A DNA stretch of 63,914 nt, filler included, from Anaerolineae bacterium (GTDB lineage Bacteria > Chloroflexota > Anaerolineae > Epilineales > Epilineaceae), in the NCBI GenBank assembly GCA_029262755.1. It is 7 parts of 7 records of this genome, joined end to end, with 100 filler letters (N's around TTAATTAATTAA, not from the genome) between each part and the next. Parts side by side here need not be neighbours in the genome. Positions count along the whole stretch, not along the records: positions 27,075 to 34,410 come from JAJCYU010000334.1; positions 34,511 to 51,992 come from JAJCYU010000335.1; 5 more parts are not named here. One strand, given 5' to 3'. Positions 33,862 through 36,800 of the stretch are shown piece after piece (the stretch's first letter is position 1; every line of letters starts with the position of its first letter). A program made the position numbers.

Positions 33862-36800
33862 CCTCGTCAAAGAGGGTGGGAGTTCGAGTCTCCCCTTCCG
33901 CATTGCACCTTGACAGGGCATCCGGGAATCCGCCGCTGGCCTTCGGGCTAGAGGAACCTCCCAACTGCCACGTACATGTGGACCTCACGAAACCGGAAGT
34001 GAGGGCGCGTTGCCCGTGAGGGCGCGTGACGACAGCCGCAACAGAGAGAAGACCTGTCGGACCCGCGCATTGTGACGCGGGCGGCAAGGGTGAAAGCTCG
34101 CCGGGAAGGCGAGGGTGCGCTTCGGAGACGGGCGCACGCAGGTGAGGCGGCCACGGCAGCAAGGCGGGTGGGCCGGGCTCGTACTTGGGGCAGCGACCTC
34201 AAGCGATGTTCGGTCCCGTCGCAGCGGACGCCGGCGAGGTCGGGTAACACCCGTCAAGCTAGGCATCCGCCAGTGCCGTTCGCGGCGCTGAGATAGATGG
34301 CGGACTCGACAGAATTGGGGGTATGACCCCGATGCCCTGTTCGGTGCGCCCCCGTAGCTCAGAGGATAGAGCACCGGCCTCCGGAGCCGGGTGCGCAGGT
34401 TCGAGTCCTGNNNNNNNNNNNNNNNNNNNNNNNNNNNNNNNNNNNNNNNNNNNNTTAATTAATTAANNNNNNNNNNNNNNNNNNNNNNNNNNNNNNNNNN
34501 NNNNNNNNNNGGAGGAAAGAAGGCGTATTTCGAAGGCGGGCAGCTACCGCTTGTCCGACGCCTTCCGTACCGCCGCGGCTTCACAAACGTGTTCCGTGTC
34601 GAATACGCTCCGGTGAACTTGTCGCGCTTGGAAGCAATGTTCGAAGATAACACCGAGATCACCGCCGCGACCCTTACGTCAGCCGGCGTCCTGCGCAACG
34701 AGCGCGAGGCCTACAAGATTTTGGGCGGCGAGATCGCCAAGCCTCTCGTTGTTCACGCGCCGCGATTCAGCGTCGCTGCACGGGCGGCCATCGAGGGTGC
34801 TGGTGGCCGCTGTGAAGACACGACCGACGACTATCGGCGTCCCGGCATGCGCCGCGAGCACAAGCGCTTCCGATAGCGCGCCGGCCGCCGTTAGACGGCC
34901 GGATACGAGCACCCTTCCGAGGAGCAAGCCGCGATGTTCCGATCACTGGCTCAATCCCTGCGTTTACCGGATCTCCGGAGGCGCATCCTGTATACGTTGG
35001 CGATTCTGGCCATCTATCGTCTCGCCGCGCAGATTCCCGTACCGGGTGCAGACCGGGTGGCGATCAGCCAGATCTTGGACGGTCCCGGCGCGGTCGGTCG
35101 TCTCGGAAGCTTCTTGAACATGATGACCGGCGGTGCGCTCGAGAATTTTTCGGTGATGGCGATGGGGGTCTATCCCTACATCACCGCCTCGATCATCATG
35201 CAGCTGATGACGCCGTTGATTCCTGCGCTGGAAGAGTTGTCGAAGGAAGGGGAGTCTGGGCGCAACAAGATCAACCAGTGGACCTACTGGATGACGATCC
35301 CGTTGTGTATTGCGCAGGCGTTCGCGCAGATTGCCCTGCTCAACAGCTCCGGCAGCGTCGGCCAGCAGATCATTGAGTTTGGTCCGAACTACCCGCTCAA
35401 TACCGTGACGGTCTTGATGGCCCTGACGGCGGGTTCGATGTTCGCGCTATGGCTCGGTGAGCGCATCACGGAAGAGGGCCTCGGCAACGGCGTGTCGATC
35501 ATCATCTTCATTAGTATCGCGGCGCAGATTCCGACGAACCTGTTGAACCTCGGGCAGGCGAATGTGCTCTCGCTGGTCGTGGTGGCTCTGTTTACGATCG
35601 CCATCGTGTACGCCATCGTCGTGATCCAAGAGGGTCATCGACGCATTCCCGTGCAATACGGTCGGCAGGTCCGCGGTCAAAAAGTATACGGTGGGCAGTC
35701 TACGTTCATCCCGATGCGCGTGAACTCGACGGGCATGATCCCGCTGATCTTCGCGAGCTCGTTGATGATCTTTCCCGGTGTGATCGGCAGCCTGATGGCC
35801 AACTCGAGCAACAGCACGGTCAGCGGCGTAGGAATCACGCTTCAGAATACCTTCATCTCGGGAACGGACTGGGTTTACTTCCTCGTGTACTTCATTCTGG
35901 TGGTGGCATTCACGTACTTCTACGCGGATGTGATCTTCCGGCAGCAGAGCTTGCACGAGACGTTGCAGCGCAACGGTGGCTTCGTGCCCGGAATTCGTCC
36001 GGGCCAGCGCACCGAGACGTACTTGACCTTCGTCTTGCACCGGATCACGCTGTTCGGTGCCGTGTTCCTAGGGTTGGTGGCGATCGTCCCGTACTTCATG
36101 CAGTTCTTGACGCCGGGATTGAACGCAACGCAGTCGATGATCGTCGACAGTGCCGGGCTGCTCATTGTGGTCGGCGTCGTCGCCGATACGATCAAGCAGT
36201 TGCAAGCGCAGCTACTGATGCGCAACTATGAAGGCTTCATCAAGTAGTATCACGCCCGTTGGGGGCTGAAATTCTTGACCGAGCGGAGGGGGCGGGTTAT
36301 CCTCAACGCTTGGCTTGTCGGCAGAAAGGACCATTCCATGAAGGTTCAGGCTAGCGTCAAGAAGCGCTGCGAGAACTGTAAGATCGTGCGGCGACGAGGG
36401 CGTGTCTACGTGATTTGCAAGATCAAGAAGCACAAGCAGCGTCAGGGCTAGGAGCTCGAATATGGCACGTATTGCAGGCGTTGACCTGCCACGAGACAAG
36501 CGCAGCATCATCGCGTTGACCTACATCTTCGGTATCGGTCGCACAAGCAGCGAGCGAATCCTGGATGCGACCGGCATCGACGGCGCGGTTCGGATCAAGG
36601 AGTTGACCGAGGACGAGGTTGGCCGCTTGCGCGCGTTCATCGACCAGAACTTCAAGGTCGAGGGTGATCTGAGGCGAGAAGTGTCGCAGAACATCAAGCG
36701 GTTGCAAGAGATCGGCTGCTATCGCGGGATCCGCCATCGCCGGCGGCTGCCCGTGCGCGGCCAACGCACGCGCACCAACGCGCGCTCCAACCGGGGCTCG

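Follow-up and report, generated by a model that had tools for sequence, protein, structure and literature searches.

The plus-strand segment 33914-34339 of the window, the whole 63,914-nt stretch of DNA that was analysed, very probably specifies the catalytic RNA component of the ribonucleoprotein RNase P of this organism, an RNA of a derived type A form that is widespread in Chloroflexota. We delimit rnpB (33914..34339, +) from the first to the last P1 pair, on the basis of the Rfam match and the homologues. The match, located by cmscan at 33918-34339 on the plus strand, covers positions 1-367 of the 367 in RF00010 and scores 37.4 bits, with E-values of 5.8e-9 in a 10-kb search, 2.6e-10 in a 452-nt search and 7e-10 in the whole genome. 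Within the match, ACAGAGAGAAGACC, AAGGGUGAAA, AGCAAGG and AGAUAGAUGGC are all present, whereas the alignment reads GAGGAACCUCCC where the consensus has GAGGAAAGUCCGG, and ACAGAAUUGGGGGUA where it has ACAGAACCCGGCUUA. The full-length match and these strings, already quoted in a preliminary description of the locus, were reproduced. Judged from its sequence, 33918-34339 is almost certainly a functional rnpB: the full-length alignment, the conserved homologues, the compensated P4 helix and the single copy all agree with the earlier proposal that this is the real gene. Because 37.4 bits is under the Rfam gathering cut-off of 100 bits, standard annotation indeed misses it.

BLAST finds homologues, 72-81% identical, in 13 of the 17 genomes of the family, this genome included. 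Within the order, RF00010 matches occur in 23 of 35 genomes and none of the 35 reaches the cut-off. The match was previously described as the lowest of 41, which holds for full-length matches, whereas partial matches in the same order are lower (18-28 bits). Likewise, a 96%-complete genome of the family (G002) does yield no scored match, but its contig C23 holds the first bases of the gene and ends inside P3, directly after tRNA-Leu(GAG), and a true absence of rnpB there was rejected. The homologues in related genomes form a gradient with scores up to 109 bits. This graded series, the full-length alignment to the model with an E-value of about 1e-10 and the universal junction motifs make it extremely improbable that the segment is a structured tRNA-operon spacer resembling RF00010 by chance, a reading to which the position between tRNAs and the score under the cut-off would lend themselves.

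The scores are bimodal in the class, as had been noted before. Among 48 genomes, one per family, 25 lie at 194-325 bits and 19 at 65-109 bits, and four have no match. A variant P4 helix is found in all 19 genomes of the lower group and is missing in 24 of the 25 genomes scoring at least 194 bits. The remaining genome (G046) was considered as a possible carrier of both forms; its canonical RNA scores 308 bits, and the variant-pattern match elsewhere falls within an open frame of 363 aa, lacks a 3′ strand and was rejected as a chance match. The low score of the present RNA has several sources. The consensus structure line of RF00010 draws the P4 strands as unpaired, so that P4 is treated as unpaired conserved sequence; the composition correction of Infernal subtracts 27.5 bits at a GC content of 0.67; and family-level changes in L13 and the arm tip contribute further. 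The caveat that GC-rich drift could explain the score is justified in part, for those 27.5 bits; relatives at 109 and 102 bits, with GC contents of 0.57 and 0.60 and corrections of only 0.1 and 3.6 bits, stay below the canonical 194-325 bits of the class.

The main departure from the consensus is located in P4. The 5′ strand A-C-C-(U)-C-C-C-A-A, together with J3/4 GAGGAA, occupies 33951..33964 (+), and the 3′ strand U-U-G-G-G-G-G-U, preceded by ACAGAA, occupies 34309..34322 (+), as defined by the cmscan alignment, a pair check and covariation. The bulged U is at 33959, and C33957 and C33958 replace the consensus A and G; directly 5′ of the bulge, this RNA thus has C-C, most relatives have C-U and the consensus has A-G. 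Compared with the consensus, four of the eight P4 pairs are exchanged throughout the clade, and this genome adds a fifth; the helix keeps its length, its register and the bulged U. The covariation check across relatives that the preliminary description lacked was run on 55 related sequences and reveals compensatory changes in P4. All eight pairs form in 55/55 sequences, each of which retains the bulged U, and the GAGGAA and ACAGAA flanks are invariant. Three pairs covary: position 33958 (U-G 37, U-A 17, C-G 1), 33963 (G-C 52, A-U 3) and 33964 (A-U 54, G-C 1). These results bear out the claim that both strands have changed together. In addition, of the 70 locus entries in which the 5′ motif occurs, 67 also have the matching 3′ strand, 330-500 nt downstream. 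The catalytic metals would be bound through phosphates of the backbone at the two P4 positions just 5′ of the bulge and through O4 of the bulged U itself (Klemm 2016), so compensated base changes would leave the chemistry intact.

Outside P4, the type A core is retained, comprising P1-P5, P7-P14, P18, J3/4 GAGGAA, J11/12, J12/13, J5/15 GCAAGG, J18/2 and ACAGAA. The structure was tested with 87 pairs in a plain MAFFT alignment of the 55 sequences. Pairing is found in 86.4% of the cells. Shuffling gives 71.0%, and none of 500 shuffles attains 86.4%; sliding the partners gives 37.6-49.2%. P2 (96%), P3 (95%), P5 (100%), P7 (83%) and P8 (100%) are paired with compensatory changes. P1 consists of 9+3 pairs; its mean duplex energy is -19.5 kcal/mol, compared with -12.9 for shuffled tails, and in 48 of 55 sequences the energy is below that for the shuffled version of the same sequence. 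We attribute the poorer figures for P1 (52%) and P9 (53-69%) in the MAFFT alignment to misaligned ends and variable stems. In families f1 and f2, the specificity domain does not line up correctly with the rest, and P9-P14 were left out of the covariation count. All-against-all covariation, noisy from shared ancestry, served as a lead to helices that were tested separately; it gave no P6 partner, and none was found for J5/7.

The specificity domain P7-P14 spans 33978..34154 (+), as supported by the cmscan alignment, covariation in P7 and P8, and family and clade alignments. Its parts on the plus strand, placed by cmscan, are L8 GAAACCGGAA (33989-33998), L9 GUGA (34016-34019), J11/12 AACAGAGAGAAGACC (34040-34054), J12/13 AAGGGUGAAA (34086-34095), P13 (34097-34113) and P14 (about 34115-34137). 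The junctions J11/12 and J12/13 (ACAGAGAGAAGACC, AAGGGUGAAA) are thus present, and both P13 and P14 can be matched to the type A model, with an atypical L13 of GGGAA instead of the usual GUAAGAG. L8 is an enlarged GAAAC..AAG loop, 11 nt long in the variant clade. P18 (34272..34289, +), identified by pair check and covariation, is 87% paired with all seven pairs changed on both sides, and its loops vary among relatives. Here L18 is UUCG (34279-34282) and not of the GNRA type. In the available part of PMC8457005, docking of a GNRA L18 on P8 is described as a type A feature, one that L18 = UUCG does not provide, so that one type A strut is missing; a comparable L18 change was used to break the L18-P8 contact (Marszalkowski 2021).

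Directly after J5/15 GCAAGG, an extra helical arm is formed (34165..34218, +), supported by covariation in the 55 sequences. It is composed of CGGG, a UGG bulge (34169-34171) and GCCGGGC on the 5′ side and GUUCGGU and CCCG on the 3′ side, enclosing a family-variable tip (34179-34207). Pairing reaches 100% in one of its helices and 98.7% in the other, and seven of 11 pairs are changed on both sides. The insertion of about 70 nt reported earlier does correspond to extra sequence in the P15-P17 region, but it is this conserved 54-nt arm with a linker, and only the 29-nt tip is variable among families. The arm is followed by a P15-P16-P17-like module (34224..34270, +), also defined by covariation, with helices 34224-34228/34266-34270 and 34233-34235/34258-34260 and a hairpin at 34239-34255 with loop UAACA; these are paired at 91%, 93% and 93%, with compensatory changes. 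Two GG sites are candidates for a P15-type CCA site: 34170-34171 in the arm bulge, where both G34170 and G34171 are invariant in 55/55 sequences, and 34262-34263 in the module, which is conserved at less than 90%.

These features bear on the reading that the RNA is an ordinary type A molecule with nothing structurally distinct, its low score reflecting GC-rich drift and one insertion only. The 27.5-bit bias correction at GC 0.67, the type A helix plan with all its conserved junctions and the variable insertion at the arm tip speak for it. We nevertheless consider it unlikely, given the 102-109 bits of relatives with 57-60% GC and a bias of at most 3.6 bits, and the discrete conserved differences in half of the P4 pairs, the 11-nt L8, the non-GNRA L18 and the covarying arm with its invariant GG bulge.

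The match at 33918-34339 (+) is the only one to RF00010 in the whole assembly, which was searched as 428 contigs and is 84% complete, so that a second rnpB in the missing part of the genome is possible. Other genomes also have one match each, including a 100%-complete single-contig genome (G068) and a 97%-complete member of the family (G001). The protein partner rnpA, whose presence had been stated before, is encoded at C139:8332-8661 (PF00825, 93.8 bits), and intact rnpA genes above the cut-off and without stops are found in 17/17 genomes of the family. HARP (PF08745), a protein-only form of RNase P, is above the cut-off in none of these 17 genomes, with one 20-bit fragment in G007, and was ruled out as a replacement. 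The segment could in principle be a decaying relic, with tRNA 5′ processing left to another enzyme, either one whose canonical rnpB lies in the unassembled 16% or a protein-only RNase P; a score under the cut-off, the 84% completeness and the UUCG loop of L18 would fit. Against this, compensatory changes preserve every P4 pair in 55/55 sequences, near-complete relatives carry this copy only, and the tRNA synteny is conserved; together with the rnpA and HARP results, they leave the relic very unlikely.

The gene is embedded in a tRNA cluster, as the preliminary description had recognized. The cluster begins with tRNA-Arg(GCG) (33606..33682, +; ARAGORN, Rfam tRNA 68.5 bits) and continues with tRNA-Leu(CAG) (33689..33776, +) and tRNA-Leu(GAG) (33817..33902, +), both detected by ARAGORN and Rfam. 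CCA is encoded in the first two of these genes and not in the third, which lies 11 nt upstream of P1. Eight nucleotides after P1, the 5′ part of tRNA-Arg(CCG) follows (34348..34411, +; Rfam tRNA 39.5 bits at 34355-34411), with its anticodon taken from the sequence; the contig stops within it at 34411, 72 nt after the RF00010 match. All these genes share the strand of rnpB. The arrangement is conserved in the family, where the upstream neighbor is tRNA-Leu(GAG) in 13/13 loci and the downstream neighbor is tRNA-Arg(CCG) in 12/12 other loci, and in relatives rnpB is located inside arrays of 14-19 tRNA genes. Moreover, a same-strand tRNA gene lies at most 150 nt from rnpB in 52 of 55 variant loci, compared with none of the 21 canonical loci from this class. 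That the variant form and tRNA arrays go together so strictly suggests a self-processing arrangement.

The promoter scan shows no sigma-70-like site on the plus strand between 33000 and 34411, and the promoter/terminator scan of the rnpB region shows no terminator on that strand. By eye, TTGACA-17-TACTCT can be seen near 33530-33558, ahead of the tRNA cluster. Among the sequencing runs, only the DNA run X1 contains the stretch (0.96 of words), and the RNA runs contain small shares. The metatranscriptome X13 has a 353-nt contig over 33966-34315, with 40 differences and 17 gaps, and a 106-nt contig over 33952-34057, with four differences; these contigs hint weakly at expression in close relatives and by themselves show neither transcription nor strand. 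Run X16 covers only tRNA parts, and in run X17 the region 33995-34197 is very deep and other parts of rnpB are uncovered, gaps to which we attach no meaning. We propose that tRNA-Arg, the two tRNA-Leu, rnpB, tRNA-Arg and onward genes would be transcribed as one polycistron, from which tRNA end-processing would release the RNase P RNA. Its 5′ end would be set by 3′ trimming of tRNA-Leu(GAG), whereas RNase P itself would cut at 34347/34348 and so set the 3′ end of its own RNA, which on release would work with RnpA.

Of the 401 genomes of the class, 176 have the variant P4, each of them once. In named records, it is found in Caldilineales (Caldilinea), Anaerolineales, Ardenticatenia, Ca. Aquidulcis, Chloroflexus, Roseiflexus and Kouleothrix. 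Both P4 strands are present in 38 of 80 fetched named-record loci, all 38 of which belong to Chloroflexota, and in 0 of 39 loci of other phyla. The Chloroflexus and Roseiflexus records share the variant P4 and L8. The motif test detects no arm motif in the Chloroflexus, Roseiflexus, Kouleothrix and Chloroploca records, and no adjacent tRNA was found in the short flanks examined of rnpB in these four. Sister families of the same class carry the textbook type A form. A structurally deviant RNase P RNA lineage, as first claimed, is thus supported in that the deviation is discrete and conserved, but it is not peculiar to this organism or to a small lineage.

Tentatively, these RNAs may constitute an undescribed structural class of Chloroflexota. 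In such a class, P4, the ribozyme helix with the strongest conservation, would be rewritten, including the two nucleotides of the metal-binding phosphates, the P4 receptor and L8 would have changed together, and the L18-P8 strut would be replaced by the arm, with its GG bulge as a possibly relocated CCA site, and by the P8-like UAACA hairpin. In Anaerolineae, the gene would in addition be fixed in tRNA polycistrons and be self-excising. If true, an enzyme would be excised from its own substrate transcript, coupling the supply of the ribozyme to tRNA transcription, and this self-processing arrangement would be open to study in cultured relatives. A natural lineage at the scale of a phylum, with half of the P4 pairs swapped and the geometry kept, would also provide a test of P4 chemistry versus history. 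Rfam-based annotation misses rnpB across whole orders of Chloroflexota, as in the present order; completeness checks requiring rnpB would wrongly flag such genomes, and a clade-specific model would fix the annotation.

In the literature covered, we came across no account of the P4 variant, of the arm or of an rnpB located in bacterial tRNA operons; key papers of the 1990s, which may show Chloroflexus or Herpetosiphon sequences, are outside that coverage. A similar gene arrangement is known from yeast mitochondria, where the RNase P RNA gene is flanked by tRNA genes, transcribed with them and released by tRNA processing. That RNA is organellar and highly reduced, whereas the RNA described here is a full-size bacterial one, located in relatives in long tRNA arrays. 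With type A RNAs (RF00010; E. coli M1 RNA, T. maritima), it shares the helix order P1-P5, P7-P14, P15 region and P18, the junction motifs, the P4 pseudoknot with bulged U, the P13/P14 specificity domain and the RnpA partner. It differs from them in four to five of eight P4 pairs, with both nucleotides just 5′ of the bulged U among those changed, in the enlarged L8, the non-GNRA L18, the arm after J5/15 and L13 GGGAA, and in that P6 was not found.

Type C RNAs (Thermomicrobium roseum, Sphaerobacter thermophilus) belong to the same phylum, Chloroflexi, and, as far as the accessible text of PMC7191817 goes, are likewise a departure from type A missed by tools. According to Table 3 of Sun and Caetano-Anolles 2010 (PMC2858038), in the part available, type C lacks P13 and P14 and has P10.1 and P15.1. 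Membership of that type was rejected for the present RNA, since it has both P13 and P14, which fit the type A model, and shows no P10.1 insertion. Bcheck gave only partial rnpB predictions, consisting of part of P11, P12 and junctions, for three Chloroflexi including Roseiflexus and Chloroflexus aggregans (PMC2996960). The accessible portion of that paper gives no structural reason for them, and they resemble the partial matches at model positions 110-210 in several genomes here. The RNase P RNAs of CPR bacteria (Lui et al. 2021, PMC8172020) also need lowered Infernal thresholds and manual refolding, but in the sections of that paper available their departures are lost helices and motifs (P12, P13, P14, P16, P17, UGG motif); a changed P4 or an additional arm, as in the Chloroflexota RNA described here, is not among them.

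The sequence at 33918–34339(+) aligns with RF00010 over model positions 1–367 of 367 at 37.4 bits (cmscan; cut-off 100 bits), with E-values of 5.8e-9 (10-kb search), 2.6e-10 (452-nt search) and 7e-10 (whole assembly). It is the single RF00010 match in the entire 5.06-Mb assembly (84% complete, 428 contigs), and all sequence strings quoted in the preliminary description were found in the locus or its alignment. The gene is carried by contig C334 (27075–34411), which is joined to C335 (from 34511) by N runs around the TTAATTAATTAA linker (34412–34510).

A BLAST search with the 422 nt recovers a single homologue, at 72–81% identity, in 13 of the 17 Epilineaceae genomes (the source genome counted). 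RF00010 matches 12 of the 17 at 25.7–66.6 bits, none over the cut-off, and in the whole order it matches 23 of 35 genomes, again with none passing. The 96%-complete family genome reported to lack the gene (G002) indeed gives no RF00010 match, but this is an assembly artefact: its contig C23 ends in a tRNA-Arg-Leu-Leu cluster, and the last bases are the P1-P2-P3 5' part of rnpB. The partner gene rnpA, previously noted in the source genome, is present without stops in all 17 family genomes, and HARP (PF08745), an RNase P made of protein alone, exceeds its profile cut-off in none of them. The RF00010 match at 33918–34339 is no coincidence: the gene is conserved. The rnpA open frames of three relatives (G006, G007 and G014) reach 269–293 aa against the usual 120–150 aa (175 aa in the source genome), and may represent an extension, a fusion or a mere upstream open frame.

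The low score could merely reflect GC-rich drift and one insertion. Composition does contribute, as the Infernal bias correction takes 27.5 bits from the source rnpB (GC 0.67); another GC-rich relative (L026) loses 26.2 bits and scores 78.6, and relatives with GC 0.57–0.60 score 102–109 bits with a bias of at most 3.6 bits. The rest of the deficit fits structural changes at the family level.

The P4 helix has been rewritten on both strands. In the cmscan alignment, the Rfam consensus GAGGAA-AG-U-CCGGG and ACAGAA-CCCGGCUU is replaced by GAGGAA-CC-U-CCCAA and ACAGAA-UUGGGGGU, forming A-U, C-G, C-G, a bulged U, three C-G pairs and two A-U pairs, with length, register and bulge preserved. We aligned 55 distinct variant rnpB sequences of the class (alignment A1) and counted base pairs; all eight P4 pairs are standard in 55/55. 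The pair at 33958 is U-G in 37 sequences, U-A in 17 and C-G in one, that at 33963 is G-C in 52 and A-U in three, and that at 33964 is A-U in 54 and G-C in one. Compared with the sister families, whose canonical rnpB reads GAGGAAAGUCCGAGCU / ACAGAACUCGGCUUA, four pairs are swapped clade-wide and a fifth in the source genome. The count bears out the proposal that the two strands change together. Because P4 is a pseudoknot, the RF00010 CS line treats both strands as unpaired, so that compensated changes are penalised twice. According to Klemm et al., phosphate oxygens of A50 and G51 in T. maritima, together with O4 of U52, bind the catalytic metals; in the cmscan alignment these residues correspond to C33957, C33958 and U33959. 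We infer that backbone ligands and an intact bulged U would tolerate the base swap.

A hand-drawn structure of 87 pairs was scored on the same 55 sequences. In total 86.4% of cells pair, compared with 71.0% after shuffling (reached by 0/500 shuffles) and 37.6–49.2% with partners slid, and the covariation score is 0.437 versus 0.178 in shuffles. P5 and P8 pair in 100% of cells, P2 in 96%, P3 in 95%, P18 in 87% and P7 in 83%. P1 (52%) and P9 (53–69%) pair poorly, probably because MAFFT misaligns ends and variable stems; the P1 duplex energy is −19.5 kcal/mol versus −12.9 kcal/mol for shuffled tails, and lies below its own shuffle in 48/55. P9–P14 were left out of the pair count, since two families (f1 and f2) do not line up there with the other sequences of A1.

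The reported insertion of ~70 nt does consist of extra sequence, but resolves into a covarying helical arm at 34165–34218(+), directly 3' of J5/15 GCAAGG (CGGG, bulge UGG, GCCGGGC ... GUUCGGU, CCCG). Pairing in its two helices reaches 100% and 98.7%, changes occur on both sides in 7/11 pairs, and bulge residues G34170 and G34171 are invariant in 55/55; within the family, only the tip (34179–34207) varies. A P15-P16-P17-like module follows at 34224–34270 (91%, 93% and 93% paired). Compared with type A RNAs of sister families, L8 is GAAACCGGAA instead of a UAAC-type loop and L18 is a non-GNRA UUCG. The hairpin at 34241–34253 reads CGGGUAACACCCG, which in sister families is the canonical P8/L8 sequence. 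In f1 and f2, L13 is GGGAA in place of GUAAGAG; f1 lacks the hairpin present between P5 and P7 in most other variant lineages, and no P6 partner was detected for J5/7. Marszalkowski et al. 2021 (PMC8457005) name L8(AAC)-P4 and L18(GNRA)-P8 as the chief struts between the domains in type A, and use a GNRA-to-UNCG change to break L18-P8. Set against these struts, the altered L8 and the UUCG of L18 lead us to hypothesise that the interdomain strut network is rewired.

The gene sits within a tRNA cluster on the same strand. tRNA-Arg(GCG) (33606–33682), tRNA-Leu(CAG) (33689–33776) and tRNA-Leu(GAG) (33817–33902), all called by ARAGORN and Rfam on the (+) strand, precede it, and the 5' part of a tRNA-Arg follows at 34348–34411 (Rfam match 34355–34411; anticodon CCG read from the sequence), cut by the contig end. 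A same-strand tRNA lies within 150 nt of the extracted rnpB segment in 52/55 variant loci and in none of the 21 canonical loci of the class used for comparison (four of 25 were dropped, their motif pair not being found). As relatives are not independent observations, this neighbourhood is a clade trait and not 52 separate events. Within the family, the upstream neighbour is tRNA-Leu(GAG) in 13/13 loci and the downstream one tRNA-Arg(CCG) in 12/12 loci with sequence; ten of the 13 lie inside arrays of 14–19 tRNA genes per 3.4 kb, and the other three loci comprise less DNA. The spacers of 11 nt (33903–33913) and 8 nt (34340–34347) leave no room for a promoter, making co-transcription of rnpB with the flanking tRNAs the simplest reading of the sequence. 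On that reading, RNase P would define the 3' end of its own RNA by cutting at the 5' end of the downstream tRNA. The sole promoter-like candidate for the cluster, TTGACA and TACTCT (preceded by TG) with a 17-nt spacer at 33530–33558, some 50 nt before the start of the first tRNA, was seen by eye and not called by the consensus promoter scan.

Relatives' loci L013, L014, L016–L018 and L026–L030 place rnpB in dense same-strand arrays of 17–19 tRNA genes in about 3.4 kb. C334 breaks just inside such an array, which is probably why the assembly is interrupted both here and in G002. A second same-strand cluster (Pro-TGG, Gly-TCC, Met-CAT) lies on the same contig at 27933–28235. In the tRNA array of L026, 76 nt at 3237–3312 match the tmRNA model (1–374) below threshold, at 39.5 bits against a cut-off of 47, and are probably a tRNA-like element.

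In metatranscriptome run X13, one contig of 353 nt covers 33966–34315 (40 differences, 17 gaps) and another of 106 nt covers 33952–34057 (4 differences); run X17 has very deep contigs over 33995–34197. These contigs belong to relatives and cannot prove transcription, so they hint at expression only weakly.

The bimodal score distribution was reproduced in 48 genomes, one per family: the variant pattern GAGGAACYTCCCRRCT occurs in 19/19 genomes at 65–109 bits and is absent from 24/25 at 194–325 bits, the exception, located within an open reading frame, being due to chance. The pattern is found once per genome in 176/401 class genomes (115/273 of those at least 90% complete), all-or-none by family, while the reversed control pattern occurs in 6; the matching 3' strand accompanies the 5' P4 motif in 67/70 locus entries. 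A named genome record scan gave at least 120 loci. Among the matches listed, 80 had flanks, and 38 of these carry both P4 strands, all from Chloroflexota (Caldilineales/Caldilinea, Anaerolineae/Anaerolineales, Ardenticatenia, Ca. Aquidulcis, Chloroflexus, Ca. Chloroploca, Roseiflexus, Kouleothrix and Chloroflexaceae), compared with 0/39 other-phylum loci. Among these listed matches, the L8 motif GAAACNNNAAG accompanies variant P4 in 37/38 loci and the arm motif in 24/38, the motif test finding no arm in Chloroflexus, Roseiflexus, Kouleothrix or Chloroploca records. The features are thus layered: P4 and L8 phylum-wide, the arm in an Anaerolineae-type branch, and the L13 and J5/7 changes in this family and its neighbour. 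Class-wide loci L068–L097 likewise hold either textbook type A or variant rnpB, all-or-none by family, with variant P4 also in Chloroflexus and Roseiflexus; this mixture may reflect deep branching or rnpB transfer. The suggested deviant lineage missed by annotation is distinctive, with no genome of this order over the RF00010 cut-off, but is widespread in Chloroflexota and not private to this organism.

With conserved homologues, uniform P4 pairing and an intact rnpA, the gene is the genuine housekeeping rnpB, as first proposed, and an ordinary member of its own lineage. Bcheck (2010, PMC2996960) predicts Roseiflexus and Chloroflexus aggregans rnpB only in part, P finder (PMC7191817) lists only two C-type RNAs, and Lui et al. 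(PMC8172020) describe diverged CPR RNase P RNAs with lost helices. We found no published P4 swap, arm or tRNA-operon rnpB in a search that did not cover the 1990s comparative papers, which may show Chloroflexus or Herpetosiphon structures, so an earlier description is possible. Type C identity is ruled out by the definition in PMC2858038. Judged from its sequence, this RNA appears to descend from type A RNase P RNA and to work like it, differing in that it fails the RF00010 cut-off, lacks the L18-GNRA feature and has no detectable P6. As a lineage, these RNAs form a distinctive variant of bacterial RNase P RNA, one that seems under-described.
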